DNA of 64,000 nucleotides from Heterodontus francisci. Taxonomy: Eukaryota. The stretch lies in contig NC_090403.1 of assembly GCF_036365525.1 (NCBI RefSeq), positions 26,173,461-26,237,460 of the forward strand, read 5' to 3'. The notes under the pieces were generated by a model, which did not search any database, was not told where the DNA came from, and saw only the letters and a program-made list of their open reading frames with translations. This document shows, piece by piece, positions 2,339 to 56,700 of the stretch (position 1 is the stretch's first letter; every line of letters starts with the position of its first letter). A program made the translations under genes and the position numbers.

Positions 2339-3525
2339 TCATGTGTGTTGTTTCATTTTTCCTATTATGGTCTGGATCTGCTGTAAACGGGCCCTGGTCT
2401 GAGAACGGACGATTCTCCAGGCACATTCACTGAATTTCTGAAAGGCAGAAATATTGACATATATTACCGGGTCTATACATGTGTTCACCTGGGATGAAAA
2501 ATCTGCATACTATTTTTCAAGCCATGGAAGAGCTTTCTCACGGGAGTATCAGGATTAATTTGGTCCCGGAGATTTGGGTCATCGCAAATCTCTTCACGCT
2601 GAATCCCTCTGACTGACACAGGTACATTACAGTTAAAACATTTCTATTTTTGCAGACTTCATTAGAAATTTTGAACAGAAGAAATCTTCACAACTACACC
2701 TCCAGTGTGTACCTGTAGTGACTGCAGTCATTCTTACCCTGGGTATATACTGGTTGAGAACTCTGCCTCATTGGGGTTATCTACATGGCACTTTAGGGAT
2801 TAAACAGTCAAACATGCATCTCCATACCTCCAATTCTAAACGTTGCCTCAACTTCCTGAAGTATTCCTCAATTTCCACGCTCTTGGATTCTGACACAGGT
2901 TCCCTCACACATTGGCTCAGATGTTGTAGCTGTTGACTCAGCTGAGCGCGGAAACTTTCCAGCAGGACAGCATCCCAGGGCGCAGTGCTGAGGTTCCCAC
3001 TAAAAGTCTTGTTGATTTGATCCAGTGTTTGATGGAGAAGCAGCATTTTGCCCTCGTCCTATAAAATACATACAGTTATCTCACGGGAAACCTTGGCACT
3101 GATCAAAAGAATAAAGGACTATATAGAATATCGCATTCTGCCCCAATATTATTTATAAATTTAAAAGACTGAGTATGATGAGGGGCACAGCGACAATAGA
3201 AATACGTTCCAAACTGCACACTTTCAGTTAAGTTGTCTGAAAGTGTAATCAGGTTGAGGGATTGGATGTGCCCTGCTCCTCTCCTTGTCAGACAGTGCCG
3301 GGACAGTCTACCTCCCTGGAACACAGCAGAATTCCGGGTAAAGCAATGCGCGACATACACAAATCCTGACCATGGGATAGATCAAGATCAGTTCAAACTC
3401 ACCATTTCTTTCAGTTTGCAATTAGTCTTTTCGATGTGAACGTGCAGTTCCTCACAACCCAGACTCAGGGTACCGGGCAACAAGACCAACACCATCCAAA
3501 ATCCGCAAATAAATGAAAGAGCCAT
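2339..3525 (-). CDS. IFN1: Type I interferon, subfamily A (divergent), 180 aa if exon 2 is spliced; function uncertain because the intron-2 donor is non-canonical
   Basis: Exons 3525-3403 (MALSFICGFWMVLVLLPGTLSLGCEELHVHIEKTNCKLKEM|gtgagt), 3315-3226 (GGRLSRHCLTRR...SDNLT|gaaagt), 3058-2828 (DEGKMLLLHQTL...SQCVREP...EYFRKLRQRLELE|gtatgg) and 2437-2339 (KFSECAWRIVRSQTRARLQQ...HT*). It has a signal peptide, Cys 24/49/121/153 (plus 36), and the YFRKL and CAW-x-IVR motifs of type I IFN. All introns are phase 0 and the 3' UTR is AU-rich. The symbol is family-level only. Confidence 0.85.
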
Positions 3526-4019
3526 GTTCAAGGAAGACAGAGTAAAGCACGGATCTGAAATAGTAGAAATAAAATTAGCGACCAATGTCCATCAAACATA
3601 CTTAAACATCCGTTAGTAAATGAACAAACTCTACAGTTCTTGTTCAAGATGAATCCTCTGACAGAGACAGGTATCAACTGTTGTCAAACACAGGGTGAAG
3701 TGTCAGAGACCATGCCGAAGATAAATGATCTGCTGTTTGCCATTTCTGACCACATTCGTTTTTCAACTGTGAGGAATTCACCGTACAGAACAATTGACAA
3801 GAAAGACAATCGGCTGACGCCTGGTAAATCTTCGGCGATATCATTTTCAGTCCATTTCTGAACCGCGCTGCTCAGAACAGAGGAAATACCAAAACCCTCG
3901 TTAAATCTGAAACAAAAACAAAACTGCACTGCGTCAATGGGTGAATTTTTTTGTATTTTATTTAACAACGAATTCCCCCCAAAATCTGATTCTTCCAACT
4001 TTGTGAGATGCTATTAAGG

Positions 4020-4300
4020 ATTGGACAGCCGAACCGCATTATAGAACCACTCCACGGAAGATCATTATTCCCCTGAGTTCGTGTCTTCCTTTCTCTCCTT
4101 GGGTCTCCCAATATCTGGCACCTGGTGATATCCCAGATCTGGCCGCGGGCCTGAGCTCCATCATTGCGACTGCCGGCGGCTCCTTTCCCGCTTCCGCGGA
4201 ACAGGAAAGCGGCGCTCCAGACCCGATCTTTACCTTTCAGGACTGAAGCAGTAGAAAGCCTGATGGGAAACTTTTATTTTGTTGCTAATTACGCTTTCAG
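4020..4300 (-). promoter_or_regulatory. CpG-rich candidate promoter/leader region upstream of IFN gene A
   Basis: Local cluster of CpGs (ggccgcggg, gccggcggc, cttccgcgga, agcggcgct) in an AT-rich background; ETS-like CGGAAG on the minus strand; donor AAG|gtaaag at 4234/4233. Confidence 0.4.
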
Positions 4301-5384
4301 CCCAACCTGTCCTCCTGATTCATTGAAGTACATTTACCAAGGGCAGTAGTGCTCGTGTATTAAAAAGCCTAGGAATTCGCAGACAAAAGGTGAACTTCTG
4401 TGTTGTCTCCGAAGATGCTGAGTGAGCTGTTGCGCCGTTCCAGTGTTTTGTGTTTGAAATTTCCGGAGCTGTCAAAGGCTGGACTGCTTTGCAAGCCGGT
4501 AATTGAGGCAGATCTTGAAATCTTGTATCGCTTGAGAACCAGAATAGATGTATACTTGAAGCCTTAATGTACAGCGTGAAGGGAGTAGTGCAAGGTAGCA
4601 GGATTAATTTTGTATTGTTTCAGCAAAGGTGGAGCGCAGACGTGATGGGTCAAATTACCTCTTTATGGTGCAAACTTGGATGGCTCTAGGTCTGAGATTT
4701 CTGGTTGTTCGTATCTTCTCATAGCCTTTGGTATAATAACGTTTCCAGTGCCTACCTGAAAGTATGGGAGTGAATGAGGCCTAGTTTACTATTTTAGTAA
4801 TGAGATGGGGAAATGGCGCATCAAATATTTTCACCCAATTTCCAGAGTGAAAAGGCTCCCCAATTATTCCTTCCAGCTTTTTTGACACTCCTCACAATTT
4901 AATTTCTTCAGTTAAAAACGATTTATCTTTTGCTATTCTGACTGCATCACTTGTTATGATGTGGTCAGACCAGCGGCAGGTTTTCGCTCTCTACCCCTAG
5001 GTCACAATGAGGGATTATCAGGAACGGGGATGGCATTCCCACGGAGGAAGAGGCAAAGTGCTGTTTGGAACAAAGACAGAGTCAGGCAGCATTTAAGAAA
5101 GATGCAGCCTCCCAGTTCTTTACTCTCTACACCATTCTCCAGGCAGCACCTGTTATTTGAGGACCTTTCTGAGCGTTTGTGTGTAGATGTGGGTCTGTTA
5201 GGCTTGTTACTGTAAGTAATTCTTGTTAGGGGAGCAGTGTAGCCACAGTGCAAGTTCCGATATTAGAGCCCCTCATCAGCAGACTGCATTGCGAAGGGTT
5301 CGTGGGTGAAGCTTTGCTTTAAGGGTGTAGAAAATGCACGAAAACGCCAGGTGGCAGTCTTGAGGTTAAATGAGTTGGTCGAAG

Positions 5385-6580
5385 TAGGGATGTTCACTGA
5401 TGATCACGCAGTGTTTAGATTAGATTAGATTAGATTAGAGATACAGCACTGAAACAGGCCCTTCGGCCCACCGAGTCTGTGCCGAACATCAACCACCCAT
5501 TTATACTAATCCTACACTAATCCCATATTCCTACCAAACATCTCCACCTGTCCCTATATTTCCCTACCACCTACCTATACTAGTGACAATTTATAATGGC
5601 CAATTTACCTATCAACCTGCAAGTCTTTTGGCTTGTGGGAGGAAACCGGAGCACCCGGAGGAAACCCACGCAGACACAGGGAGAACTTGCAAACTCCACA
5701 CAGGCAGTACCCGGTCATATCATACCTAATTCCTTAGAAACTGTAACAGTTCGTGCCCGCATGCAGCAAGACCTAGACAACATCCAGGATTGGGCTGATA
5801 AGTGGCAAGTAACATTCGCACCACACAAATGCCAGGCAAGCACCATCTCCAACAAGAGAGAATATAGCCATCTCTTTTTGACATTCAATGCCATTACCAT
5901 CTCTGAATCTCCCATCCTCAAAATCCCGGGGGTTACCATTGCCCGGAAGCTTGACTGCATCAGCCATAGAAATACTGTGGCTACGAGAGTAGGCCAGAGG
6001 CTGGGAATTCACTGGAGACTAACTCACCTTTTAACTCCCTGAACCCTGTCCACCATCTACAGGGCACAAGTTAGACGTGTGATAGAATACTCTCCACTGG
6101 CCAGGATGAGTGCGGCTCCAGCAATGCTCAAGAAGCTTGACACCATCTAAGAGAATACACACCGCTTGATCAGTACTCCAACCATCACATTAAGCATTCA
6201 CCCCCTCTACTATCAGTACACAGTGGCAGCAGGGTGTACCATCTACAAGATGCACTGCAACAACTCACCAAGGCTCCTTCCATGGCATTTTCCAAACTCA
6301 TGGCTCTACCACCATGAAGAGCAACGGCAGCAGACAGATGGAAACAGCAGCGCCTACAAGCTACCCTCCAAGTCACACACCATCTGAATTGGAACTGTAT
6401 TAGCATTCCTTCATTGTTGGGTCAAAATCCTGGAACTTCCTCACTAAGCACTGTGTGTGCACTGCATAGACAGCAGCAGTTCAGAAAGGCAGCTCACCAC
6501 CACCTTCTCAAGGGCAATTAGGAATGGTGAATAAATACTGGCCTTATCAGCTATGCTCACACCCGAGGAATGAATAGAAA
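5385..6580 (+). mobile_element. 3' part of a CR1/L2-clade non-LTR retrotransposon, interrupted by a SINE
   Basis: RT C-terminal remnant (MQQDLDNIQDWADKWQVTFAPHKCQ); same family as 58345-61460. Confidence 0.85.
5414..5714 (-). mobile_element. HE1-like V-SINE, 5'-truncated
   Basis: Reverse complement of the V-domain (gtgtggagtttgcaagttctccctgtgtctgcgtggg...), a CR1-derived 3' end and a (TCTAA)n tail; matches 53266-53607. Confidence 0.9.
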
Positions 6581-8238
6581 TATTCCATTCCAAGCAGAAC
6601 AGTGACATTCCTGGCAGATTTCCAAGCAGAGACATATATGGGTCTGTGCCTCTTTAATTCAATTTCTATGAGGCAGGCTTGGAGGTCTGAATCAGAATGC
6701 AATCCATGTTCTTTTGTGCCCATAAACCACGTCCTGCTGCATTTTTGCGGTTTGCTCCAGAGGATCCTACTGTTGACCCTCTTGAAATGTTATCTGAGAA
6801 TTGCGTTATCTGAGAACCAAGCACTGTTTCTTCCTCAGCTGATTGTCCTCCCAGTCTGCTGCAGATGTGCACAGGCTGAACTGTCCTCTTAAATACTGCA
6901 ATCCCGTATGTATCCATGCACTGGAGTCATACCACTCACTCCTCAGATATTCAAATAAGCTGATGCAGGAGACCCTCAGTATCACCAGCCGGTGCATATC
7001 TATTTCTATTGGTGTAATATTGATACAGTTCATTGCATGCCTATTATTCACCCTTCACCCCTAACTGTCTCTATCCTGGCAGCCATAAGTCCCACTCACC
7101 CATCACGTCCATCCTTGTTAACCTTAATGGATTCCTGGTTCCTAATGTATCATATTTAAAATTCTTGCCTCAAATTTGAAGTTTTGTGCACCGCCTTTCC
7201 TGTCACCTCATTACTGGTGATAGAAACTTCAGCCGTAGGCTCTTCCTCTTCACCTCAAGCCTCAAATTACTGTGGATCTCCACCTTTCTCCTTCATTCAT
7301 CAAGCTTTTGGTCATCCTCCTATTCTATACCCCTACGATCGGGCATTCATCCTTCGACATGTTTTATTCATTTGTAAGCTGTCATTGATATCTTAACTAA
7401 ATCACAAAATGCAAGTTGGTGTGCTGTAACTGCCAGCTGACAACACTAAACTATTAGAAACTGGTTTATCTTGATGACACTGATTTGTTTTTGTGGGCAA
7501 AAAATACATGTTTGGGGAAAGTTTACATTGCCCAAATTCTTCACTTACTTGTATTTAATGGACAGAAATGGAACGGAATACTTGAGCACAACCATTCTTG
7601 GACAGGTTTGGCATTTTCTTGTGGACTTGAGACACTGCACACACATGGCACATTTTGAGCAAGTTATTTTTGAAGCTTAAAAAGATGGTTTCTTAACAGT
7701 AATTACACAGTGAATAATATGCATTTGACAATATTCGGAGCCCTCTTAATTTGCCAAGCTGGCAGATTGATTGACTGCTCAGTTCACTTACTGTTCTTGA
7801 TGTTGGAAATTGTCTCCTGTTCTTTTCGATAAAGTAATCAGTTGGTTTATATGACTTGAAGTCAGATAGCTGGAATTGCAAGATCACGTCTCTCCAGGGA
7901 AGTAAGATTCTATTATATCCTCTTTTTGAATGGTTTACAACTCTATTCGATATATTTCTCAATATCTCAACACTTCCAAGTTTGGAAGTGACCTTTCTCA
8001 GCATTTCGTTGTGAGGAAAGAAGGAAAGAAAAGAATCATGAAAGACAACATCTATGGAACAAATTCTACAGGAGAACGGCTGGAGAGAGGACAGGATCAT
8101 TAATAAGGAGACCGAAGAGATATAGGTCACCGCTTGTGTGTCAATGTGATGCAAAAACTCTCAGATTCAGAAACACAGTAACATTGGCCTATTAGGTAAC
8201 GACATTGTAATATTATATACATTTACTTAAATTACATT

Positions 8239-8765
8239 TAGAACATAAGAAATATTACCAGGAGCAGTCCATTTAGTCCTTCGAGCCTGCTTTACAATTC
8301 AATACGATCGTGGTTGAACTACCTCTGATCTTCCCCTGTAATTCACATATCCTTTAGTTCCCTTAGTATCCAGAAATCTATGGATTTCTGTTTCGAATGG
8401 ATTCAATGATTGAGCATCCACAGGCCTCTGGAGTAGAGAATTCCAAAGATCCACAATGCTTTGAGTGAAGAAATTCCTCCTCATCTCAGTATTAAACGCC
8501 TTATTCTGAGACTGTGACCTTAATTCTAGATTTCTCTGACAAGGGAAATATCCTCCCAGCATCTACTTTGCCAAGTCCCTTAAGAATTTTATATGTTTCA
8601 ATGAGGTCAACTCTCATTCTTCTAAATTCCAGGGAGTACAGGCTCAGTGCACTCATTCTCTCCTCAGAGGACAATCCCCTCATCCCAAGAATGAGTCTTG
8701 TGAACTGTTGTTGCACACCCTCCAAAGCTAGTGTAAGGCTTCCTTAAGTAATGAGACCAAAACTA
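8239..8765 (-). mobile_element. CR1 LINE 3' fragment (repeated at ~16845-17370 and ~25449-25974)
   Basis: EGVQQQFTRLI...LSLYSLEFRRMRVDLIETYKILKG, a typical CR1 ORF2 C-terminus. Confidence 0.9.
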
Positions 8766-9004
8766 ACATTTAAAACATCCACCCAAATACATAGCACCTT
8801 AAACTGACAGCTGTTCCCGATGCAGAATGGTTCCGCATTTTAGGATCTTAAAATATATATTATAACATTTTATTCATTGGATTTGTAAGTCCCAGGACCT
8901 GAGGAACAACCGATGTGAAATCTAGAGAAACATCTGTCCGGTATTTAATACCGAAGAATATTTATTGTATCTTAATTTACGAGAGACAATTCTCTTTTTT
9001 AATT

Positions 9005-9150
9005 AAGCAGAAAGTGAAAGGTTTCAAATTGAACTAATCACTTCGGAAAGAAGTTCAAAAGATTCCCTGAAAATGCACTGTGGTGAGAAGCAAAATCGAT
9101 CCGTTTTTGTAACGTCAAAGGAATATCCTGGTCTCCACTTTAAAATGGGT
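9005..9150 (+). promoter_or_regulatory. IFN-B1 promoter: IRF element, CRE/ATF-like, kB-like and TATA-like motifs
   Basis: GAAAGTGAAAG 9010-9020, TAACGTCA 9110-9117, GGAATATCC 9120-9128, TTTAAAA 9139-9145; the same motifs are retained in the diverged pseudogene at 44975-45582. Confidence 0.7.
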
Positions 9151-9290
9151 TAATCTCACCAAGAAGGAACATTCCTTTCAATCCAACAGTGAGGGACTTC
9201 AGCTCGTGTTGATATTGTTTTTGGAGCTGAACCCCGATCCAATTCGTTTCTGCGAATTCAGATCTCGGCTTTTCCCTGTGTTGGTTGAAC

Positions 9291-10761
9291 ATGATTTTTC
9301 CCAGTGTCTGGAGACTATGGCTTTTGTTCGTCTTGTTGCCCGGGACCCTGAGCCAGGACTGTCAGAGACTCAAGTTACAACAAGATTTGATCAAGAATGC
9401 TGAAAATATCCTGAGTAAAATGGTGAGTTTATATAGAGATTAGAGAAACCAATCTTAACCATTAGTTTCTTGGGATAATCTCCTGTCGTTGAACTGCTGA
9501 GACTGAATCCGTGCTATTACAAAAGGGCATGAACCAATGTGCAAGTCACATCGAAGCATTCAGATAACGAAGCAAATTTTGTATAAAAACGACTGATTCA
9601 GTTAGATGGTCAATTAAATTTGTGAGAGGTAAAATCTTTAAACAAATGGCGGGATGGCAATGATAAACTGTAGTGGTTTTCAGAAAACATTTCTGAGAGT
9701 AACTACCGATGGTGAAGTATGTGTTTGGAGCCGGTTCTGACAGTCACTCTCTCCTGTTGTAGGGACGGTCTTTTCCATTCCGGTGTGCACCAGAAAGGCA
9801 ATCGCTGAGAACCAAGCCCCTGAACCTGCATCAGCTCGTCAAGGGGTTAGAGGTGAGTGCGTACTTTGCACAACTGTCTGCTCATTCTGCTAATGTTGCC
9901 AGGAGCCATAACTATGCGGGAAATATATCCACCTCACCAACATAGAAATAAAATAAATAATGTATAGCAATTTATTCAATTTATAAAGAATGAACATTTC
10001 CTGTGGGGACGGACGAACACTGCGGAATGGTTTAACGTCCTTCCAGCAACTTGCATCAAGATGTTATTCTGCTAAAATAAACGGTTTAACTAGCCCACAG
10101 TGGAATGTGGTGGGATCAAGTTCGTGTTAACCAATGTTGCTAACAGCAGTAAGCAGCTGTGGTTTTAAATTCGGAATCTTTGCATATTTGCATCTATGGA
10201 TATGAAAATATGAAATGTCTAAGTTGTTGTAATTGGCTGTGAGTTTTGCTCCATTCGCGCCGGTTAAAGGGGAACATGTTCCCTCTAATGTCATTATGTA
10301 TGTATTTTGCACAGGCCCAGGACAAGATCCAAATTGTCCATCAAATTCTGCGTCACATCATCAAGATCTACAGCATGAACATGGCCTCAGTCACATGGCC
10401 CCGGGACATGGTGGAAAACTTTCGTCTTCACCTGGATCGGGAGCTCGGAGAGTTGGAAGAATGTGTCAGGAAACCGGGATCAGAGTCCAGGCTGAAGAGA
10501 AACGCTGCCATTCACCAATACTTCAGGAAACTGAGAAAGTTTCTCAAACAGAAGGTGGGACAATTGCTATTTGACTGTGTGATTTCTGACGTGTAGTTTA
10601 TTTCACCCCATTTAAATCCGTTCATTTTCTCATGAATTTTCCTGAATATTTCTCCTTTTCAGAGATTCGGTGACTGTGCCTGGGAAATAATCCGCGATGA
10701 GACCAGGGCCCGATTACAACAGATCCTTTCAATAACGGGACAAATTGGCAGAAAAAATTAA
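9291..10761 (+). CDS. IFN1: Type I interferon, subfamily B copy 1, 186 aa, four Cys
   Basis: Exons 9291-9422 (MIFPSVWRLWLLFVLLPGTLSQDCQRLKLQQDLIKNAENILSKM), 9763-9852 (GRSFPFRCAPER...KGLE), 10315-10554 (AQDKIQIVHQIL...EECVRK...QYFRKLRKFLKQK) and 10663-10761 (RFGDCAWEIIRDETRARLQQ...KN*). All introns are GT-AG and phase 0. Signal peptide, Cys 24/52/124/159 and CAWE motif present. Confidence 0.95.
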
Positions 10762-11077
10762 AGATTTTCCATAGATATATTTAATCGAGACTGGGAATAA
10801 TCATATTTATTTAAAAATTGTTGAATATTATGCAAGTTTATGTTGTTCAATCTACCATGCAAACTGTGACAGAATAACATTTCTAATACATTTCTAATAT
10901 TTAATTTATGATTTTAATATTTATATCTCGATGTACTGTGTAAACATATTTCAAATTGTAAGATATTTAGTGTATTCCAGAGGCGCTGAAAGATATATAT
11001 TTAAGCCAGTTCTATATTCGAACAGACTTTGTATTGATTGGCATCGGATGTGTCCCAAATTGCAGCTCCTTAATAAA
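10762..11077 (+). promoter_or_regulatory. IFN-B1 3' UTR with AU-rich elements and poly(A) signal
   Basis: About eight ATTTA pentamers; AATAAA at 11072-11077, which is also conserved in psiB (43404-43409). Confidence 0.75.
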
Positions 11078-26499: not shown

Positions 26500-27970
26500 A
26501 TGATTTTTCCCAGTGTCTGGAGACTATGGATTTTGTTCGTCTTGTTGCCCGGGACCCTGAGCCAAGACTGTCAGAGACTCAAGTTACAACAAGATTTGAT
26601 CAAGAATGCTGAAAATATCCTGAGTAAAATGGTGAGTTTATATAGAGATTAGAGAAACCAATCTTAACCATTAGTTTCTTGGGATAATCTCCTGTCGTTG
26701 AACTGCTGAGACTGAATCCGTGCTATTACAAAAGGGCATGAACCAATGTGCAAGTCACATCGAAGCATTCAGATAACGAAGCAAATTTTGTATAAAAACG
26801 ACTGATTCAGTTAGATGGTCAATTAAATTTGTGAGAGGTAAAATCTTTAAACAAATGGCGGGATGGCAATGATAAACTGTAGTGGTTTTCAGAAAACATT
26901 TCTGAGAGTAACTACCGATGGTGAAGTATGTGTTTGGAGCCGGTTCTGACAGTCACTCTCTCCTGTTGTAGGGACGGTCTTTTCCATTCCGGTGTGCACC
27001 AGAAAGGCAATCGCTGAGAACCAAGCCCCTGAACCTGCATCAGCTCGTCAAGGGGTTAGAGGTGAGTGCGTACTTTGCACAACTGTCTGCTCATTCTGCT
27101 AATGTTGCCAGGAGCCATAACTATGCGGGAAATATATCCACCTCACCAACATAGAAATAAAATAAATAATGTATAGCAATTTATTCAATTTATAAAGAAT
27201 GAACATTTCCTGTGGGGACGGACGAACACTGCGGAATGGTTTAACGTCCTTCCAGCAACTTGCATCAAGATGTTATTCTGCTAAAATAAACGGTTTAACT
27301 AGCCCACAGTGGAATGTGGTGGGATCAAGTTCGTGTTAACCAATGTTGCTAACAGCAGTAAGCAGCTGTGGTTTTAAATTCGGAATCTTTGCATATTTGC
27401 ATCTATGGATATGAAAATATGAAATGTCTAAGTTGTTGTAATTGGCTGTGAGTTTTGCTCCATTCGCGCCGGTTAAAGGGGAACATGTTCCCTCTAATGT
27501 CATTATGTATGTATTTTGCACAGGCCCAGGACAAGATCCAAATTGTCCATCAAATTCTGCGTCACATCATCAAGATCTACAGCATGAACATGGCCTCAGT
27601 CACATGGCCCCGGGACATGGTGGAAAACTTTCGTCTTCACCTGGATCGGGAGCTCGGAGAGTTGGAAGAATGTGTCAGGAAACCGGGATCAGAGTCCAGG
27701 CTGAAGAGAAACGCTGCCATTCACCAATACTTCAGGAAACTGAGAAAGTTTCTCAAACAAAAGGTGGGACAATTGCTATTTGACTGTGTGATTTCTGACG
27801 TGTAGTTTATTTCACCCCATTTAAATCCGTTCATTTTCTCATGAATTTTCCTGAATATTTCTCCTTTTCAGAGATTCGGTGACTGTGCCTGGGAAATAAT
27901 CCGCGATGAGACCAGGGCCCGATTACAACAGATCCTTTCAATAACGGGACAAATTGGCAGAAAAAATTAA
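26500..27970 (+). CDS. IFN1: Type I interferon, subfamily B copy 3, 186 aa
   Basis: Exons 26500-26631, 26972-27061, 27524-27763, 27872-27970; protein identical to copy 2 (silent CAG>CAA near the end of exon 3). Confidence 0.95.
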
Positions 27971-42320: not shown

Positions 42321-42684
42321 GGGCTGGATTTGGTTCGGCTAGCTGGAGAGAGCATAAGAACTTCCAACAGCAGCCGCAGCAGTGGTGGATGTGGATCCAG
42401 CAGTTTGAAGTGCAGCAGCAGCGGGATGGTGGAGGGGGGTCCAGAAGTTAGCAAGAACATCAGAGGGATCTGGCAGCACTCCAGATTCACTGCCTCACGG
42501 AAAGGCAGCAGTACAAGGAGGGCTGGCAGTGCTTTGAAGCTGGTGCCTGCAGCTGCATTGCAGCCATCTGATTCTGCCATCAGTGCCTTGGAGCCCACCT
42601 CCGGCCGTGTGTGTCACATGCGGTGACAGCACCCACTTCGGGTGCCACCGCCAGGACCTGCGACAGGCTGACAAAATTCAGCCC
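42321..42684. mobile_element. Short MITE with GGGCTG(G/A)ATTT termini
   Basis: GGGCTGGATTT at 42321 and AAAATTCAGCCC ending 42684; no clean TSD. Confidence 0.55.
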
Positions 42685-43399: not shown

Positions 43400-44829
43400 A
43401 ATATTTATTGCTTCACTGTATTTTCGAACAAATCTGTTTTGAATAAATATGGTCTATCAAATTATACAACAAATTATACATATATGCATACACAATGAGC
43501 ACGTCTATCCCACACTAAACATTTTCATTACAGAATGAATAGATTTAAATGGGGTGAAATGTACTGTCGGTCATCGCAGAGTAAAATACCAATTGTCCTA
43601 TCATGTCTTTGAGGAACATCTCCAGATCGCTGAAGTATGTGTGAAAGGCGGCGTTTCTTCTCCGAATGAACTCTGATCCCACTTTCCTGACACATGTTTT
43701 CAGGTCTCTGAGCTGCCCGTCCAGGAGAAGTCGGAACTCTTTCACCTTGTCCCGGGGCTATGTGACTGAGCCCAGGTTCATGCTGTAGATCTTGATGATA
43801 TGAAGTAGACTGTGACGGATAATTTCGATCTTGTCCGACTTCTGTACAAAATACACACAATGACATTAGAGGGAACATTTTCCCATTTAACCTCACCGGA
43901 TGGAACAAAACTCAAAAAACCTCATGTTTTAAAAGTCATCTATAGATATGGATGATCAGCCATGATCATAATGAATGGCGGAGCAGGCTCGAAGGGCCGA
44001 ATGGTCTACTCCTGCTCCTATTTTCTATGTTTCTGTAATGGTGTGCCTTAAAAAAAAAAGCGGCCTAGTGATTGCTGCTGCCAATACTACTGGGTTAACA
44101 CTTCATTCAAGTAGACAAACCATTTTGCAGTTTTGGTCTGTCCACTAAAGTTCCAACAGTAGATTTTCATTGTTATAAAAATGAACAAAATAGCGCGTTC
44201 CTACTTAAAATATTTATTTTACTTTTATGTTGGTGATGTGGTTATAATTCTCACAGTTATTATTTTCATTCTTCTGTCAACATTAGCAGAATGATGAGAT
44301 AGTACACAAAATTCACACTCACCGTTAGGTCTTTGGTGAGCTGGAGCAAGTTCAACGCCTCGGTTTTCAATAATGTCCTTGTTTGTAGATAATGGAATGG
44401 AAAAGGCCTCCCTGCAATGGGAGAGAGTGATCGCCATGCTTCACAACCGCAATTATTCGCAAAAATGTTTCCCTTTAAACCACTACAGTCATTCATTGCT
44501 ACAGAACAATTTGTTTAAAGATTTTAACTAGCTAAATCAGTCATTCTTTAAACAGAGCATTGCGCGGCTTCTATACCATTCCTTCGTTATTTGAACCCAA
44601 CAATGTGAATTCCTCCAAGGAAATATTCCACATCGTTTTGTAATAAAATTAATGCAATCTCGTTATTTATCCCGAAAAGCTGATGGCTGAGATTGGTTAC
44701 TATCATTCCCGGATCTCTGAATAAAGTCACCATTTGACTCAGGATATTTCGACTACGTTGGTTTCCTCTGAGGGTCCTGGGCAACAAGACATACAGAATT
44801 CATAGTCTCCAGACACTGGGAAAAATCCT
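43400..44829 (-). pseudogene. Type I interferon pseudogene, subfamily B (psiB)
   Basis: Exon 1 44829-44731 (ATG>AGG, TGG>TGA at 44800-44802, internal deletion); exon 2 44411-44323 (89 nt, frameshift, Cys>Tyr); exon 3 43841-43602 (TGG>TAG at 43758-43760, donor gt>at); exon 4 deleted; distal 3' UTR and AATAAA retained at 43404-43409. Confidence 0.93.
43948..44034 (+). mobile_element. Short CR1 3' end inserted in psiB intron 2
   Basis: gatcagccatgatc...ggcggagcaggctcgaagggccgaatgg-ctactcctgctcctatt-tctatgtt. Confidence 0.75.
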
Positions 44830-45015
44830 TTTCAACCAACACAGAGTAAAGCCGCGATCTGAAATCTCAGAAACGAATTGGATCGGGCTTCAGCTCCGAA
44901 AAGAATATCAACACGAGCTCAACTCCTTCACTGTTGGACTGAAAGGAATATTCCTGCTCAGTGAGATTAACCCATTTTAAGGTGGACGCCAGGATATTCC
45001 TTTGACGTTACAAAA

Positions 45016-45500
45016 GTACATAATTGCTCTGGAGAGAGTACAGAGGAGATTTACAAGAATGTTGCCAGAACTTGAAAGTTGCAGCTATGAAGAAAGACTG
45101 GATAGGCTAGGATTGTTTTCCTTAGAACAGAGGAGTCTGAGGAGTGACTTAATTGAGGTGTACAAAATTATGAGGGGCTTGTTTCCCCTAGCAGAGAGGT
45201 CAATTACCAGGTGCACAGATTTAAGGTGATTGGTACAAGGATTAGAGGGGCCATGTGGAAAAAGTTTTTCACCCAGAGAGTGGTGGGTGTCTGGAATTCA
45301 CTGCCAGGAATGGTGGTGGAGGCAGAAACCCTCAATTATTTTAAAAGGTACCTGGACATGCACCTGAAGTGCTGTAACTTGCAAGGCCAAGAACCAAGTG
45401 CTGGAAGGTGGAAATAGATTGGGGTGGCTAGTTTTTTTGGCCAGCACAGACACGATGGGTTGAATGGCCTCCTTCTGTGCTGTAATTGTTCTATGGTTCT
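45016..45500 (+). mobile_element. CR1 3' fragment inserted in the psiB promoter
   Basis: IIALERVQRRFTRMLPEL...LGLFSLEQRSLRSDLIEVYKIM; promoter homology resumes on both sides. Confidence 0.9.
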
Positions 45501-46394
45501 AAAAACAAATTGATTTTGCTTTTAATCACAGTGTTTTCAGGGAATCTTTTAACTTCTTTCTGAAGTGAAACCTTTCACTTTCTGTTTAATTAAAAGAGAA
45601 AATTGCCTCTAATAAATGAAGATAGAAAAATATTCTTTGATATTAAATACAGGGCAGAGGGTTTCTAGATTTCACAACGGTTGTTCCTCAAGTCCCAGGG
45701 CTTTAAAAATCCAGTTAATAAAATTATTGCTTTATATATTTTTAGGATACAAAAATGTGGGAGCATTTTACATCAGAAACTACTCAGGACACTTTGTAAG
45801 GATCCTATGGCACTGTCTGAAGAACAGCAAAGGAGCTCTGGCCAATATTTATTCTTCAATAAAATTAATTATCTGGTCATTTATCTCATTGCAGTTTGTG
45901 GGACCATGCTGTGTGCAATTTGACTGCTGCATTTCCATTCATTTAAAAAGGACTTAATTCATTGCAACTCACCTTCGGGTACTCTGAGGTTGTGAAAGGT
46001 ACTATACAAATGTAAGTTCTTCTCTGCTTCTTCTATAAACCCACCTTTGCAATAAATTGGGTGTAATCATATCACAGAAAAAATATCCATATGACATTCC
46101 TCCATGTATATTTCTGTAAGTTTCCTTCAAAATTATTAGTAGGTGGGACAAAGAGCAACAGAACAAAGAAAGAGCAGGAATTGCTGAAGATAAAAGCAAA
46201 TGGCTGGAATGCATGTGTGTTAATGTTAGCAGTGTTGTAAATAAGGTTGACAAATTACAAACGCAAATTGGCGAGAAGTGAGACCTGGTTTAAACATGGG
46301 TAGAAATGGGAACGAAGCATTCCTGGCTGCAATGTATTCAAGGGGTGATAGGGAAGGAAAAATAACAGGGGATGTGGGTTTGGTAGTATTGGTC

Positions 46395-47725
46395 TGTGAA
46401 AGAATCCAGCCATAAGGCAGGGTTATAAGGTTAAATGAGTTATTTTCCTATGAATGAAGGATTTAAAAAAAAAGAAAGGGCTCATCTTCCTAAATGGTTA
46501 AAAAGCTCATCTCTATCATACTAAATGAACATGCCTCTGTGTTAAAAAAAAACTTGCCTCATCTCAGAAACATAAAGGCAGCTTCTGATAAGGAGAATTC
46601 ACTCTCTAATATCACAAACCTCACCATACGATAAAACATTGATAACATAATGTTGCAAACTGTACCAAAAACTACCACAGCTGATAAGATGGTTTAATGC
46701 TGATAGTCCTAAACAATAGTCAACTGAATTTTTGACAATTCTAACCAAACCCAAAAACTGAATTATAATCTTGGAACACAGTTTGATGACTAATGAAAAA
46801 TCAACCATCACAAAGCTCGCAGTTTGGCTTTTTTTTTATAGAAACCAAAGAGGCTGGGACCTTACTGAGAAATTAATAGTTATACAACCTTTCTTGGGAA
46901 TCAAAGAGGATGAACCTTACCTAGAAATCAACGGTTATACAGCCTTTTTTGGGAAATAAAGGGGGATGAACTTACTTACAGTTGAGGTAACATCTCCCAC
47001 ATGTAAGAAATTAGTTATGCAACTTGAAAAACAGTATAAATACTGGATGCACACATTGGATTTTTAGATTTGTTGGACTCTCTCCAACATCTCTCGTTGT
47101 AAAGGTACAACTGTTGGACTGAGGCGATGTTGTTTTCCTTTTAGCTTGACAGAGGTATCTTGCTAACCCTGTTGTCTTCTACTCAGGGATTTAAGGTAAA
47201 TGTTAATTTAATAATTGATAGATATCCTATTTAAATATTTTACTGTAACAATATATGGATTGAAAAATTGGATTCTCTGCTAGAAACAAGATTGTATTTT
47301 CTATTTTTTCATAAAACTATTAATGTTGTGATTGACTGTCTCATCAACTGTGAATTGCATGTTCGGTTCTTTAATAAACTTTTATACAAAGTAGAATTTT
47401 TATTGTCTCACATAGTCTTCTGTATCACTAACTCATGATCCCATCTCCTTACACTCTTTGGTGGGGAGATACATTACTGAGGAGCATTTCAAAAGCCCTC
47501 AATATATCTGGATTATTATAAATCTGGCTGAAACTTGTTAAAAAAGGCTATCTGGAGGACAGTAATATTCTCAGCTTCCTTTAGGGAGAGTTAGATCAGT
47601 CCTTAAGACCCATTCAAGTGTCTTTGAGATCTGTCTTTCTCAACCTTAAGTTGAGAATGATCATCTGAGAAGTATGCCTGATCCAGGATAGCTCCAGAAA
47701 AGGGCTAGGATTATAATCCATTAGA
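46395..47725. mobile_element. Unclassified insertion in CR1, possibly a solo LTR
   Basis: Interrupts the CR1 endonuclease region; starts TG; AATAAA at ~47373; flanks ggtc/gatc only imperfectly duplicated. Confidence 0.35.
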
Positions 47726-48978: not shown

Positions 48979-49597
48979 TGTTAGCAGGAATGAATCTAGA
49001 AGAATCACTCGACACTCAGGTCTGTTCCAATGTCAAACAGTTTATTGAGTTACGCCAGCGGGGAGCAGGTCACTGGGCTGTCCAGATGCCTCTCCACTGA
49101 ACAAAGGAAAATCCACAACAGATATACAGTTACTCAGCCCATCCCGGCTGGACATAATCCAATTATAACGGTTATTGATTACATATATTACATTAATTAT
49201 TAATAAAATTATTAATTATGCATCATGTGGTTGTGGGGATAGTTCATGGTACGCCCCTGACCATCTCAGCTTGTTTACCAAAACCCCTTATCAAATATCC
49301 TTGAGTCTTCACAATGAATCCTTCTACCTCTATCAGGCCTGCATTCCTAGTTGCTTTGTGTAGTCCGCAATTAGACAGAGCAACTGACTTTTGCACTGAT
49401 ATGGGGGGCCCTCTTTGGTCAGTGTAATTGCATGTGCTAAGCAGTACCATGCTCAAGGCTGCAAACTAACTTGTCCAACAATGTCTGGAGTAAATACTCC
49501 ATTTTGTAACAATATATGGCTACACTTACATCTTATATATATATATATATGTGTGTGTATTTATTTAGCTGCATCGGCCACAATTTTTCCCTCTACA
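48979..49597 (-). mobile_element. Probable solo LTR
   Basis: TGTTAG...CTACA termini interrupting the CR1 RT; minus-strand AATAAA at ~49042; no clean TSD. Confidence 0.5.
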
Positions 49598-49777
49598 ACA
49601 GTTAATGTGGGAAAACTACTGGAGATCATTGTCAAGGGAAAAATTAATTCTCACTTAGAGAAGCGTGGGTTAATATGAAAGGCCCGGTACAGGTTTGAAT
49701 GGATGTTTTTCTGATTGGAGAAGCTATGCAGTGGGGTTCCCCCTGTGGCCAGTATAGGAATATTGCTTTTGTGATAG

Positions 49778-51536
49778 TGTTATGACCTCAGTAGAGATTG
49801 CTGACTTTAAAGCAAGAGTTATGAACTCCCCAGACCAATTAAAGAATGACGTGACAAAATTTTACATTTTAAGATGTTTATTATAGCAACTAAACCACAA
49901 ATGAACATTAATTAAACAGAACTTAGTAGGTAGCTAATACACTAAATTACAGAGAAAGGTATTTCCCATTAACTTATTTACAGACTCAAAAACTCCACAC
50001 CACATTTATACGTTACACAGCATTCTCATCATAAAAGTATCCTTGCAGTTAAAAAGTCCCAAACTCCTCCCAGCTGCGATGGGTTGGATTTCCCAGTGTC
50101 CTTCTGAAAACCAATGTCCTCTTTGTTCACTTCTCCTGAGCACATTCGACTGGTCTTCCTTCCATTAGTAAGGCAATCTCTGGTGAGCCTGTCTTTTATT
50201 TTCCTCTGCAAACCTCAGCTTTCGAATTAGGCTCAAGTCTTAGCAGCTTTTGATTATATCGGTGATCTGAGAGCAACTGTTTCTCTCCCTCTCTCTTTAG
50301 GTTGCCCAGCTGCTGGTCTTTGTGTCTTCCTTTCAGCCCGCCAGAGCTAAAAAAGCCTCTTGAATTTATTCAGATCAAAAGTCAATAGTCATTTGCTTTT
50401 TACAATTCCCAGAGTCCATGGGCTGAATTTTACAAGTGTGCTGCCGTTTGCAGTGGTGCACTCTGATGGCGGCATGCATCCCTTGCAGATGCGCTGTCCC
50501 TGAGCCCCTGCGATATTTTGCGCATGGTCTCATTTAAATGGAGGGGGTGGTCAGCCGCCCCTGATAACATAGAGAGGGTGGCCACTGTGTCCCCGGCAAC
50601 AGCGCCCAGTGCCACCGCACCGGCGGCGGTACCATTTTTAAAGGGCTTCAAGCGCTGACAGGTCATTAAAATTTTTAAAGAGGAAGGATGATGCAAATTT
50701 AAGTAAACATGTCATAACATTCTCACTACTATCACACACATCACCAAGGAAGAATTGATGGATTAATTGGACATGACCCCCCAAAAACGTTTCTGCTGAT
50801 ACTGACCTTTCCCCCCCAACCTTTAGCAACTTTAAACTGTGGCCTCTTCCCACCATCCCCCCAGCAAACAGAAGTGTTTTCCCTGCTTCCACCACCCCCC
50901 CCACCAGCCCTGAAATTTGCACTTCTCCCCCCTCCACACAAGTGTCTTGCCTTGGAATTCTGTATAGAGTTCGGTTGCGGCCTGCGCCCGTAATATCACC
51001 ATGGGATGGCCGCCCAGTCCAGGTAAGTTCATTACCATTTATTGTAACGCATTTAATATTTAAATGTAGGCCCCGCTGCCAAGCGGCAGGGGTGGCCGCA
51101 CCGAGGCCTCGTTGCTGCTGGTAATATGCGACGGGGCCTTCTTGGCTTTGTGGGTCATGGTGGGCCTCTCCCGCAAGTATTTTACAGATCACCCTGCCAT
51201 GACCCAAGGCATCAAGGGGCTGGTAAAATCCAGCCCCATAAGTCTGACGATGGCAAAACTACCTGGGCCTTCCTTTGTTTCCAGGTGTTAACAATCGCAA
51301 CTCAAATTTGCATTTTAAAGCCCTGGCTCCCTGTTTGTAGTCTTTGAGTCTTTGAGAGTGAAACCCATTGTCCTTTAGGTGTTGCAACCTTGCCCCTTGC
51401 TTTGAAAAGGATCTGAGTTTCTGATTCTCATGTAACCAAGACCCCTGGCTTGTCCCTGGGCAGATTTTACACTGTATTAAAGATCACAGTTTTTAAAACA
51501 TAACCACACTTCATAACTTTACCGGCATTCATAACT
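49778..51536 (-). mobile_element. Solo LTR (Gypsy-like) containing a nested MITE
   Basis: TGTTATGA...TCATAACT termini; 4-bp TSD ATAG (49774-49777 / 51537-51540); the CR1 rejoins across it. Confidence 0.75.
50420..51236. mobile_element. Harbinger-type MITE
   Basis: TIRs GGGCTGAATTTTAC / GTAAAATCCAGCCC; 3-bp TSD CAT. Confidence 0.8.
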
Positions 51537-53265
51537 ATAGGTATAAATACGTATAAAAGACCTGAGTATGGGGAGTACAATTTTGAAGTTTGTAAATGTT
51601 ACAAAAATTGGCAATGTAGTAAATATTTTTTAACATTTTTTTAAGGAGGATAATAGCAGACCTCTGGAGGACATGGACATACTGTTGCAATGGGCAGATA
51701 CGTAGCAGATGCAATTTAGTACAGCTAAGTGTGAAGTGATGCAATTTAAGAGGAACAACATGGAGAAACAGTACAATGTAAATGAGACTATTTTGAGGGG
51801 TGTGCAAGAACAGAGGGACCCGGGGGGTGCATATGCACCAATCTTTGAATGTGGCAGGGGCAATTTGATAAGGTGGTTAAATAGGTGAATGGGAGACTTG
51901 CCTTTGCAAATAGGAGCACTTAATACAATAACAAGGAAATCATGCTAAACCTTTGCAAATCACTGGTTAGGCCTCCTCTGGAATATCTGGGCATCAAACT
52001 TTAGGATGGATGCCAATGTCTTGCAGAGGGTACAGAGGAGGTTTACTAGGATGATACCAGGGATGAGGAATTTCAATTATGTAGAAAAATTGGAGAAGCT
52101 GAGATTGCTCTCCTTAGAGCAGAGAAGGTCTAATAGTCATAGTCAAAATTCTGAGGAGTTTTGTCAGAGCAAGTAGGAAGAATCTGGCAAGTGGGTGAGA
52201 TCATAGATTTTAAATAATTCGCAAAATAACTAAAGGAGAAATTAGGAGAATTTTCGCCACACAGAGGGTTGGTAAGATCTGCAACACACTGCCTGAAAGG
52301 GAATCAAGAACTTTCAAAACGTAAATGGACATATTTTTCATGGAATTAATTTACTGGATTATGGGGAAAAAACTGGGGTTTGGAATTAAATTGGACAGAT
52401 CTTTCAAAGAGCCAGCACAGCATGAACAGGCCGAACAGCCTCCTTCTGAGCTATAAGATTCTTGATTCTATGATTTATTTCTCTATTTTAGAAAATACAT
52501 ATAATATTGCTCTGAGATAATAATGAAAACACACTAATGCTAGTTTTCTGAAATAAAACAGAAAGTTGTAGAACAAATAGTATTGAAGAGTTTTCCGAAA
52601 ACAATAAGCCACATTATTCTTACTGATGTTGATTGATGTGCTGTGAATTTCCAATGCTTTCTGTTTTAATTTCAGATTTCTTTTCCATGTAACTCTTCTT
52701 CATCTTTTATACAGCTGCATATATACGTAACTTCCTTTTCTTGCTGATTGCTTTGTAATCTGAGATGGCAGCAGTCTTTGCTGATACGGTGGAGTTTAAA
52801 TCATTATGAAGGGATATAAAGCAGTTTGAACTACATGAAATAATCTGAATGAGGCCTGATAGAATTTTGACTTATGTGATCTGCTCTTTTTACTGTTTTA
52901 AACAAAATGCCTCCATCAGTTAGAGTGTAATCATGAGTAACTGAATCAGGATGAAACTTTAGGTAAAAATATAACTGCCACAAAATAAAATTCAAACTCA
53001 GCAACTGTTATATAAGAGCAGCTAATTATTTTGACATGGACACATGGTAGAAATAATCTATGCATAGATGCATTTTGTACTGAATTCTATTAGATGGTGC
53101 TCCACTCCCTTTGCAGTCCTATAAATGTATTACCCTGTTTTTAATCATGCATTATTAAAAATAAATCTAGCGTTGTTAGGGTCTGAAGTTCTGTTAATGG
53201 ATGATAAATACCTGGTAGTTCAAGATAATAGGGTGAACAGGTTTTGGGTGTTAATTAGTTAATTT

Positions 53266-53607
53266 GGGGCGGCACAGTGGCGCAGTGGTTAGCACCGCAG
53301 CCTCACAGCTCCAGCGACCCGGGTTCAATTCTGGGTACTGCCTGTGTGGAGTTTGCAAGTTCTCCCTGTGTCTGCGTGGGTTTTCGCCGGGTGCTCCGGT
53401 TTCCTCCCACAGCCAAAAGACTTGCAGGTTGATAGGTAAATTGGCCATTATAAATTGCCACTAGTATAGGTAGGTGGTAGGGAAATATAGGGACAGGTGA
53501 GGATGTGGTAGGAATATGGGATTAGTGTAGGATTAGTATAAATGGGTGGTTAATGGTCAGCACAGACTCGGTGGGCCGAAGGGTCTGTTTCAGTGCTGTA
53601 TCTCTAA
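53266..53607 (+). mobile_element. HE1-like V-SINE, full length
   Basis: tRNA-derived head (A box tggcgcagtgg, B box gggttcaattc), V-domain, CR1-like tail. Confidence 0.92.
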
Positions 53608-54804
53608 ATCAAAAAAAATTGTGTTCAAATGTATCTATAAAGAAGAGTCAGCCAGCACCAGCTGTGTGTTGTTAGGAGTGGAGTGGAGAAGTAAGCTCTG
53701 TGGCAAGCAATAAACAGTCTCTACCTAAGCTTCATGGTCTCAGTGTCTTGGAAGTTCTATAACAGTGTTTTGTGATTTGCTTAACTGGTCATATCTCAAG
53801 GTGTGAGGACATGGTTGTCAAAGATGCAAGGAATTAATTGTGACATTGTAGGAATTAATTGTGACATTGTAGTTCTCATACAGAGCAATATGAAATGATA
53901 GGATATAGATCCACTCACTGGTTACTTCCCTATTCCGGCAGTATTACTGTGGCGAAGCGTCAAGTGGCGGTTGGGCATTTCACTGTAGGAAAGGAGGGAA
54001 CCCAAAGCAACATGCTACCTCGGGATGCTATCAGACAACTCTGAACAGAGTGTCCGAGGTGTGTGCCTGCCTGGTAGCTTTCATATTGACTACAGTTGCA
54101 CAAGTCCTTAGTAAATGATGGACCATTGACAGAATCACCAAAGTAATCTAAGTAGACTCAATGCTGCACACTTAGGATGAACATGAAGTTTGCCGAATTG
54201 AAGTCTGGCTTTCTTTTTCTATTCTATTGTTTTATAATTTTTTCTTGTTTTCTTGGTAGGCCCACAAGGAGATTCATGCTGGTACTTTGCAAACGTACTT
54301 TCCTCCTTCTTCAACAATTTCCTCCCTCTCAATGCAGGTCACTAGGACCACTAATGACCACTGGCAATAGCTCTGGTTTTAGTCTGGGGTAAGGCAGATT
54401 CACACAGATCTCAGAAGGGAGAGGTGGACCTTTGGGACCCCTCCCAGAAGTGCTCATAGCAACTGAAATATTTATTTAACCATGTTGCCATTGGTGATAA
54501 GCGTGGCACAGTAGAGCTGACTTTCAGCAACAAACTTTAAAATTAGCTATGTGATAGAGGAGTACTGAGATTAGGGCTACATAAATCTACCTTTGAAGAA
54601 CCCCAATAATACTGATACTGGCCATAGGTGGTGTCCTAGTATTGCTGTGGTTTAATTGAACAAATGGAGGCTGAGTGCTTTTTGCTCGATAGGTAGATAT
54701 TAAATGCTGTTAAAGGCATTTTTCCATTTATACAGCACCTTTCACATGCTTAAAACACCCTAATAATCTTCACAGCCAATGGAGTACTCTTGACGTATAT
54801 AAAA

Positions 54805-55600
54805 AGACTTGGATTTATATAGTGCCTCTCAACCAAAGGACATCTCAAAGCTCTTTGCAGCCAATGAAGTACTTTTGAAGTGTAGTCACTGATGTAATGC
54901 AGGAAACACAGCAGCCAGTATGCGTACAGCAAGCTCCCACAAATAGCAATGTGATAATGACCAGATAATTTGTTTTTGTGATGTTGATTGAGAAATAAAT
55001 ATTGGCCAGGACACTGGGGATAACTTCTCTGCTCTTCTTCAAAACAGTGCCATAGGGCAGCACAGTGGTTAGCACCGCAGCCTCACAGCTCCAGGGACCT
55101 GGGTTCGATTCCGGGTACTGTGGAGTTTGCAAGTTCTCCCTGTGTCTGCGTGGGTTTCCTCCGGGTGCTCCGGTTTCCTCCCACAGCCAAAAGACTTGCA
55201 GGGTGATAGGTAAATTGGCCATTATAAATTGTCACTAGTATAGGTAGGTGGTAGGGATATATAGGGACAGGTGGGGATGTTTGGTAGGAATATGGGATTA
55301 GTGTAGGATTAGTATAAATGGGTGGTTGATGGTCGGCACAGACTCGGTGGGCCGAAGGGCCTGTTTCAGTGCTGTATCTCTAATCTAAAAAAATATTTTC
55401 AATCCACCCAATCAAGCAGATGGGGCCTGAATTTAACGTCTCATCTGAAAGACAGCACCTCTTGCAGTGCCACACTCCCTCAGTACTACACCAGAGTGTC
55501 AGCATTTTTTTTTGCACTGAAGCCCTGGAGTGAGACATGAACCAAGAATCTTATAACTGAGAAACAAGAGTGCTACTAACTGAGCCACAGCTGACACTAT
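54805..55600 (-). mobile_element. Deu-domain SINE interrupted by an HE1-like SINE
   Basis: tttaacgtctcatctgaaagacagcacctc...actccctcagtac and aaatattggccaggaca, the reverse of 35055-35385. Confidence 0.7.
55055..55387 (+). mobile_element. HE1-like V-SINE
   Basis: Near-identical to 53266-53607. Confidence 0.92.
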
Positions 55601-55699
55601 CAATTGCTATATATTCACTATTGCAATGCAGGCAATCTTAATACGATCTGTTAGACTGTGCATTGGATTGCATTGTGGGTGCGCTATCAGGCTTCACAC

Positions 55700-55933
55700 T
55701 AGAAGAAGGATATTGAGGCTGTATAGATTTTGCTTGGCACTGGGAAATAAAGTACATGACAGGACTTGAAAAATTGGGTGATTTTCCATTAGAACAACAG
55801 ATTAGAAGGCACTATCTTAGAAGTATTTAAATTAATGAGAGAAAGGGACAGCGAAGTCAGAAGCAGATTGTTTCCAGCATAGTGGGGTAATAGATGAGTG
55901 TCCATAGATACAAGATTAAGTTTAAGAGATTTT
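55700..55933 (+). mobile_element. Old CR1 3' fragment abutting psiA
   Basis: gaaggatattgaggc...ttttccattagaaca..agattaga...agaagtatttaaattaatgag. Confidence 0.55.
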
Positions 55934-55963
55934 ATCAATCTGCTTCACCCTGGGTTGGCGAAA

Positions 55964-56700
55964 ATGGCTCTTTCATGTATTTGGGGATTTTGGATTGTGC
56001 TGGTCTTGTTGCCCAGGACAGAGTCTGGCCATGAGAGGCTGAAGTTACAGCAACTTCTCAACACAAAGATTCTGAGCAAACTGAATAAAATGGTGAGTTT
56101 AAACAGATCTTCATCTATTCCATCACCAGACCTTGCGTATGTGACAAATTGTATTAACAGGAACACTCCTGTGTTCCAACTAGGTAGACTATCCCTGCAA
56201 TATGTGACAAGGAGAGGAGCACCTCAGAGCACCTTAAATGTAAGTATTCCAGTTCACTTTATATTTCTACTGTAGCTGCGCCTGACATGTTGATCAGGTT
56301 TTTAAATGGATAAATAATATTGTTGAAGAACACACTTAACTGTGGTCCTTTAAGCTTTTGAATAGTGTCAAGATACCTGTGAAGTAACTGTATATATTCT
56401 ATAGGCCAAGGAAAAGATCCTGGTTATCCATCAAATATTGGATCAAACCAACAAGACGTTGCTCTGCACCATGGGACTCTGTCAGGCTCCAATAATGAGG
56501 AAATTCAGGAATACCTCAGGAAATTGAGGGAGCTTTTAGAACTGGGATTCACATTTGATGGTTTTATTCCTAGTGAAGTACCATGTGGATAAACCCAATG
56601 TACAAAATCCTCAAGCAATAAATACCCGGGACTGAACGTGACTCCAGTCACTACACGTATTTTTAAAGATTTCCTCTGTTGTGTATTTCCTGTTAGAAAA
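55964..56700 (+). pseudogene. Type I interferon pseudogene, subfamily A (psiA)
   Basis: Exon 1 55964-56092 (MALSCIWGFWIVLVLLP...LNKM|gtgagt; first Cys lost); exon 2 56180-56239 (acceptor cag>caa, 30-nt deletion, Cys>Tyr); exon 3 remnant 56405-56545 with frameshifting deletions; introns alignable to gene A; exon 4 not found. Confidence 0.9.

Follow-up and report, generated by a model that had tools for sequence, protein, structure and literature searches.

How did a group of type I interferon (IFN1) genes in a shark come to be arranged almost as its own mirror image? The question is raised by a 64-kb stretch of the Heterodontus francisci genome (the window; contig NC_090403.1, here C33:26173461-26237460) that carries two interferon subtypes, termed A and B. 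A sequence-only reading had proposed that a head-to-head A/B module was duplicated in inverted orientation, that one copy died entirely, and that B was later re-amplified in the other. Based on an analysis of 464 kb around the window, we consider it probable that the mirror arose by inverted duplication of an A/B segment within a cluster of 19 interferon loci, and that the rear half of B was homogenized with the neighbouring gene D by gene conversion. The mirror exists, but it is nothing unusual for a cluster that evolves by birth-and-death, and the half-gene conversion is the best-supported addition to it. The following features of the window (in window positions) are concerned.

2339–3525, minus strand: gene A, with exons at 3525–3403, 3315–3226, 3058–2828 and 2437–2339
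3526–9290, no strand: A–B spacer, 5.8 kb, about 29% interspersed repeat
5867–31601, plus strand: B tandem array, three 8.6-kb units with one B gene each
9291–10761, plus strand: gene B1, with exons at 9291–9422, 9763–9852, 10315–10554 and 10663–10761; intact, 186 amino acids
17896–19366, plus strand: gene B2, intact
26500–27970, plus strand: gene B3, intact
43524–45780, minus strand: psiB, a promoter with an insertion of about 485 bases, exons 1–3 and introns 1–3
55920–56659, plus strand: psiA, exons 1–3, introns 1–2 and the start of intron 3

Self-comparison of the window revealed inverted matches between 2710–3529 and 55960–56659 and between 8813–10636 and 43524–45780, as well as a three-fold direct repeat of 8.6 kb. 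Together with exon mapping, this bears out the order originally read: A on the minus strand, three B genes on the plus strand, psiB on the minus strand and psiA on the plus strand. The pairing of A with psiA and of B with psiB also held, as introns align only within the pairs (z of 14–19 for A/psiA and 16–19 for B/psiB against shuffled sequences), whereas the cross pairs A/B, A/psiB, psiA/B and psiA/psiB gave z values of 1.7–3.6 in the introns compared. The extent of the likeness had been stated too broadly. Homology between psiB and B extends from −477 through intron 3, plus two 3′ patches, but exon 4 of psiB is deleted; other lesions are an AGG start codon, TGA at 44802, a loss of 33 bases in exon 1 and of one base in exon 2, TAG at 43760 and a lost exon 3 donor. 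The homology of psiA to A begins only at about −45, breaks off within the first part of intron 3 and covers exons 1–3 and introns 1–2; exon 4 and an A-like promoter were not found for psiA, which has lost the intron 1 acceptor and the exon 3 donor and carries deletions in exons 2 and 3. The proposal that psiA died later than psiB was dropped, the dN/dS values (0.96 and 0.93) having wide, uninformative intervals. Both pairs are divergent by gene orientation, and the description as divergently transcribed is one of orientation only. The symmetry is thus that of gene bodies and the B promoter, while spacers and outer flanks share no unique DNA.

The ages of the two pairs are compatible. The Kimura two-parameter distance (K2P) of introns is 0.305 for A/psiA (352 sites) and 0.271 for B/psiB (617 sites), with a 95% interval of −0.05 to 0.12 for the difference, and the numbers of synonymous substitutions per site (dS) are 0.25 and 0.31, respectively. 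The mismatch in age that would have spoken against the inverted module was not seen, and a single duplication event is therefore allowed. The B/psiB promoter (8813–9290 versus 44830–45780) has a lower K2P (0.15) than the introns (0.27), though psiB is dead; this may reflect either long-lasting constraint or conversion.

Exon mapping over the 464 kb revealed 19 type I interferon loci spread over 238 kb in the order C, A2, A, B1–B3, psiB, psiA, D, E1–E10; the window forms the middle of this cluster and its six copies make up 6 of the 19 loci. The minus strand carries 15 of them, including psiB and A, and the plus strand carries B1–B3 and psiA. Exon 3 of B gave 18 matches as a query and a Pfam search gave 17, all inside this single cluster. 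In the Pfam search with PF00143 (cut-off, 26.8 bits), exon 3 scored 48.3 bits in B and 46.5 bits in A, and B matches 20 solved interferon sequences, the best being IFN-omega (E = 1e-15). The translations contain conserved cysteines, a CAWE motif in B, D and E (CAWR in A), and a signal peptide predicted by eye only. Judged by the PF00143 domain, the cysteines and the CAWE-type motif of the predicted products, the loci are type I interferon genes. They consist of four exons and three phase-0 introns; B1–B3, D and E1–E10 have open frames with GT–AG introns, C has an open frame, and at least four subtypes (A, B, E/D and C) are present. B1–B3, D, E and C are represented among the database protein models, with identical entries for B, D and E (P0001 and P0024 are B-type proteins for B1), and no model of A or A2 was found among the protein matches returned. 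The last exon of a PF00103 gene, which we take to be growth hormone, lies on the same contig 240 kb past E10. The loci outside the window are listed below.

C33:26147034-26150115, minus strand: C, before the window; divergent subtype with an open four-exon frame
C33:26161892-26167220, minus strand: A2, before the window; recent twin of A with donor and promoter motif intact
C33:26247463-26255818, minus strand: D, 10 kb past the window end; intact
C33:26261764-26385120, minus strand: E1–E10, ten intact genes in a recent tandem array

Intron 2 of the E genes measures 1.8–7.2 kb each, and the dS between E1 and E10 is 0.015–0.085. A tandem repeat with a 55-base unit (2.4 copies) was observed at 46841–46975 of the window.

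Did the mirror arise in one event? Of the marks that a block duplication would leave, mirrored pairs and equal divergence were found, and collinear homology of spacers and flanks was not. Several observations weigh against a single block. The A–B and psiB–psiA spacers, masked and unmasked, have only the B promoter and a young short interspersed element (SINE) in common, and in the outer flanks, masked and unmasked, the inverted matches found were repeats only. D and E1, with a similar divergence of intron 3, retain about 1.8 kb of alignable 3′ flank, so that the missing spacer homology counts moderately against the block; it is possible that such homology was lost by repeat turnover at this divergence. 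The introns of D/E1 and psiB/D likewise differ by 0.27–0.31, which makes the equal-age test weak. Further, psiA is without the 3-residue gap in exon 1 that is common to A, Pristiophorus, Rhincodon and Chiloscyllium, suggestive of either an earlier split or conversion from E, and protein trees join neither A with psiA nor B with psiB, rejecting neither (p-values of the approximately unbiased test (p-AU), 0.31, 0.42 and 0.49). Two common patches at the centre of the mirror lie at most 560 bases from the B stop codon; the unique DNA 5′ of A recurs only 5′ of A2, and that 5′ of B only in the B array. Matches between 5411–5712 and 53333–55407, at first candidates for block homology, were rejected, as they represent the young SINE, which gives 45 matches in the 464 kb. 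Its copies at 5430–5712, 53263–53619, 55060–55395 and 60809–61163 are 92–98% alike and imitate mirror homology in a dot plot.

In an alternative, A and B were duplicated and inverted separately, as single genes in events of similar age, out of an ancestral one-strand E–B–A–C array. psiB and A would then keep the old orientation, in line with the 15 of 19 loci on the minus strand, homology would be confined to gene bodies and the B promoter, as is seen, and the mirror would be a coincidence. Two events are needed here, as they are for an inversion followed by a block duplication. Against this, chance would have to account for the palindromic order as well as for the equal ages; by our own arithmetic, random order and strand give a palindromic order with opposite strands in about 1 of 12 cases. 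A draft catshark model, P0002, in which B-type exons are fused to a downstream A-type exon 3, places B and A on one strand in that shark, as this alternative would have it, but it fits a head-to-tail array and the mirror alike, since B and psiA also share a strand in the mirror. Fused models of neighbouring interferons were also seen as P0058, P0077 and P0081 (with P0002, from catshark, skates and stingray); they are likely annotation errors showing a same-strand tandem order. We regard separate duplications as unlikely, though they deserve to be kept in mind, and hold that one inverted block duplication is, by a little, the probable origin of the mirror. The inverted A/B module duplication accordingly keeps its order, pairing and ages, and lacks common spacer or outer-flank DNA.

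Is the pair itself ancient? According to the sequence-only reading, sharks would possess an old, paired two-class IFN1 system, possibly sharing intergenic control; in its strongest form, a head-to-head A/B pair under common control would be ancestral to sharks and the mirror would predate their radiation. It is true that A and B are old subtypes, occurring in both main shark groups, and in Chiloscyllium, Rhincodon and Heptranchias the A and B models carry consecutive or almost consecutive accessions, which suggests linkage. In the tree of exons 3–4, moreover, psiA groups with Heptranchias A genes (support, 93/93), and neither has the exon 1 gap; psiA and psiB may be orthologues of Heptranchias genes (hidden paralogy). 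However, this grouping is gone under a mixture model, and there are at least four subtypes rather than two classes. The subtype splits are also deeper than the mirror: dS is about 0.8 for B/E in exons 1–2 and 0.9–1.3 for A/B in exon 3, against 0.25–0.31 within the pairs. By these distances the divergence of the mirror is about one third of that between the subtypes. Together with the 15 of 19 loci on one strand, this makes it more likely that the mirror is specific to this lineage.

Promoter structure argues in the same direction. The motif patterns used here are those that we take to be of the interferon-stimulated response element/interferon regulatory factor (ISRE/IRF) type and NF-kB-like, and the motifs are putative.

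9010–9019, plus strand: ISRE/IRF-type motif GAAAGTGAAA, at −281 of B1 and kept in B2, B3 and psiB

An ISRE-like motif is present at −318 in A2 and lost from A, and an NF-kB-like site lies at about −340 in D, E1 and E10. Genes of a bidirectional-promoter pair start within about 1 kb of each other and have elements in common. The start codons of A and B1 are 5.8 kb apart with repeats between them, and each subtype has its own proximal motif, which is not the structure of such a pair and lends no support to the proposed control through common intergenic DNA. As far as the motifs can tell, a separate proximal promoter likely drives each gene, while one enhancer common to A and B is possible. Since both A copies are damaged as well (see below), we consider an ancestral, jointly controlled pair improbable.

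The rear half of the B genes has a history of its own.

10315–10761, plus strand: exon 3, intron 3 and exon 4 of B1, 87–93% identical to D; likely conversion tract

B sides with psiB in the promoter, exons 1–2 and introns 1–2, and with D from exon 3 on. Identity between B and D amounts to 93% in exon 3, 90% in intron 3 and 87% in exon 4, as compared to 77% between B and psiB in exon 3 and 80% in the kept part of intron 3; D and E1 are 79% identical in intron 3. Among the informative sites of B, psiB, D and E1, those joining B with psiB and those joining B with D stand at 35:1 in exons 1–2 and at 3:11 in exon 3 and intron 3 (Fisher p = 1.1e-7). The dS between B and D is 0.81 in exons 1–2 and 0.10 in exons 3–4 (by exon, 0.70 (0.33–1.8) in exon 1 and 0.06 (0–0.14) in exon 3). 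As the signal resides in an intron and in synonymous sites, protein convergence and faster decay of psiB are excluded as its whole cause. In the 3′ flanks, B matches psiB, D matches E1 (E-like), and B and D do not match; the unexchanged flanks suggest conversion without crossover. The same flanks ruled out another candidate, a direct tandem duplication later flipped by a B–D crossover. Closeness of the tract, a switch of the nearest paralogue and unexchanged flanks were all found, and interlocus gene conversion is likely on these grounds; between B and D, either direction is possible. It is, in our view, very probable that non-crossover conversion maintains the likeness of exons 3–4 among B, D and E, with exons 1–2 remaining subtype-specific.

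D itself resembles E1 in exon 1 and in about 5 kb of DNA upstream of the gene (89–98% identity), is only 77% identical to it in exon 2, and is B-like in exons 3–4; from this comparison it appears to be pieced together from E-like and B-like parts. Exon 1 of A and psiA (3403–3525 and 55964–56092) is 80–85% identical to that of E, while exon 3 of A is 62% identical, and the A/E1 dS (0.29 in exon 1, 1.26 in exon 3) is suggestive only. This is a hint of a further conversion track, between A/psiA and E at the 5′ end, for which tree tests were not significant.

Is the mosaic confined to Heterodontus? Trees were built from 41 of 151 fetched proteins and seven rows from this genome, with near-copies, fragments, most fused models and non-chondrichthyan matches left out. 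The sample included four ray proteins, all E-like, with chimaeras outside it. Rows were labelled by eye beforehand, A by exon 3 and B versus E by exon 1, so the grouping of B on exon 1 is circular. The protein trees indicate that subtypes A, B and E occur across sharks, with A and B in both squalomorphs and galeomorphs; the comparison with other chondrichthyans therefore upholds A and B as old subtypes, but it neither joins nor rejects the pairs A+psiA and B+psiB. In the tree of exons 1–2, A and E stand apart from B (99/98). The A+E clade has high branch support on exon 1, although B+E is not rejected (p-AU, 0.11 for exons 1–2 and 0.31 for exon 1). In the tree of exons 3–4, A stands apart (100/98) and B and E are intermixed: a B clade is rejected (p-AU, 3e-6), and B and E group together within Heptranchias (95/86) and within Pristiophorus (99/95). 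For 3 of 10 species, exons 3–4 of B resemble an E of the same species more than any B from another order (0.82 vs. 0.79 in Heterodontus, 0.95 vs. 0.81 in Heptranchias and 0.81 vs. 0.75 in Pristiophorus). The remaining species speak against homogenization, as likeness within and across species is about equal in 4 of the 10 and three carpet sharks exhibit no within-species likeness of B and E (0.66 vs. 0.73–0.75).

Might the assembly have created the pattern? B1–B3 units are 98.0–99.2% identical, and contigs of reads collapse them into one mosaic; both points would suit an artefact in the B triplet or the mirror. Contig depth is uninformative for B copy number. Nevertheless, the units are 65–128 substitutions apart over 8.1–8.6 kb, so they are not one sequence assembled three times, three B versions exceed two haplotypes, and psiA and psiB are about 25–30% diverged, each with its own lesions. 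An artefact is therefore very improbable. The recent re-amplification of B is supported. The ends of the B units fall in fragments resembling long interspersed nuclear elements (LINEs).

On the supposedly living side of the mirror, the A gene is in poor condition.

3220–3225, minus strand: donor of A intron 2, GAAAGT, in place of GTAAGT in A2 and psiA

Spliced at the sites of its relatives, A would have a frame of 180 codons, the same length as the Pristiophorus A-type protein P0054 (180 amino acids). The nearest alternative GTs are weak: that at +4 causes a frameshift with a stop after 91 codons, and that at +6 is in frame but matches only two of nine consensus bases. Skipping of exon 2 would preserve the frame. 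A 1248-base read contig of the same organism covers the donor with three differences, none at the donor itself. In A2, which has two coding differences from A outside the insertion site, a LINE of 4144 bases is found at the start of exon 2. Judged by its donor, A is likely splice-defective and may be non-functional; in two RNA-like contig sets nothing aligned on A, which is uninformative for expression or splicing. All three A-type copies (A, A2 and psiA) thus appear damaged in their sequence, and the division into one intact and one dead module is not supported. Models P0055, P0103, P0105, P0107 and P0108, from other sharks and rays, are without exon 2 and in frame; these are either model errors or cases of recurrent exon 2 loss, as a weak A donor would cause. 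Intact-looking A proteins were found in Pristiophorus, Heptranchias, Rhincodon and Chiloscyllium, which suggests that a subtype intact in other sharks has been lost or is being lost in H. francisci.

Taken in order, the events might have been as follows. Subtypes A, B, E and C would have arisen before the split of the main shark groups, after which the inversion of one gene would have set A and B in divergent orientation, with the rest of the array on one strand. At about 0.3 substitutions per site, and probably in this lineage only, an inverted duplicate of this pair would have formed, and psiA and psiB would have decayed with loss of flanks and exon 4. B may then have been tripled via unequal recombination between LINE fragments, and A duplicated again, with both copies damaged later. 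Non-crossover conversion would have homogenized exons 3–4 of B, D and E and left exons 1–2 subtype-specific.

The type I interferon cluster of cartilaginous fish has been placed at the growth hormone/CD79 locus, with genes of four exons and three introns (PMC5332411). The cluster described here is alike in its four exons and three introns, its tandem organization and a growth-hormone-family exon 240 kb past E10; it differs in having 19 loci versus three in elephant shark, four inverted copies and mosaic subtypes. For IFN1 of jawed vertebrates, birth-and-death was favoured over concerted evolution, based on whole proteins, and the expansion in cartilaginous fish was considered possibly related to IFN-f (PMC6640115). 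Repeated duplication and loss are common to that model and this cluster, and in its Table S2 the start of two Squalus sequences is, by eye, of the B type; whereas the model opposes the two processes, in this cluster they operate together, each on a different half of one gene. Human IFNA paralogues also undergo gene conversion (PMC3244034), a similar transfer of sequence between clustered type I interferon genes. Human IFNA genes, however, are intronless and highly alike, while here transfer proceeds by exon modules between subtypes whose remaining half has diverged by about 0.8 synonymous changes per site. Passages of PMC13176653 and PMC12232857 contained nothing on shark gene order, and a literature search, with most subscription journals out of reach, found no account of how the genes of shark interferon clusters are ordered or of their mosaic structure.

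What might the two halves do? Aligned to human interferons, exons 1–2 correspond to helix A and the AB loop, exon 3 to the middle helices and exon 4 to the last helix, an assignment that is partly our assumption. In human interferons, the part corresponding to exons 1–2 is the main IFNAR2 contact and the helices of exon 3 contact IFNAR1. By analogy, shark interferons may, as a tentative proposal, be assemblies of exchangeable exon modules, with exons 1–2 subtype-specific across orders and exon 3 homogenized within species. Within this proposal, the E genes could have exon 1 in common with A and exons 3–4 with B, which we put forward with equal reserve. No more firmly, the subtypes could choose between the two IFNAR2-type chains that have been reported for cartilaginous fish while co-evolving with one IFNAR1; a homogenized IFNAR1 face combined with distinct IFNAR2 faces would make sense. 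The partial homogenization of exon 4, which is also an IFNAR2 contact, speaks against such modules.

In these interferon genes, birth-and-death and concerted evolution thus each shape a different half, and whole-protein trees of shark IFN1 consequently mix two histories. Reconstructions of the ancestral set of vertebrate interferons from such trees can be misled by the mosaic, which also directly predicts which receptor chain would distinguish the interferon subtypes of sharks.

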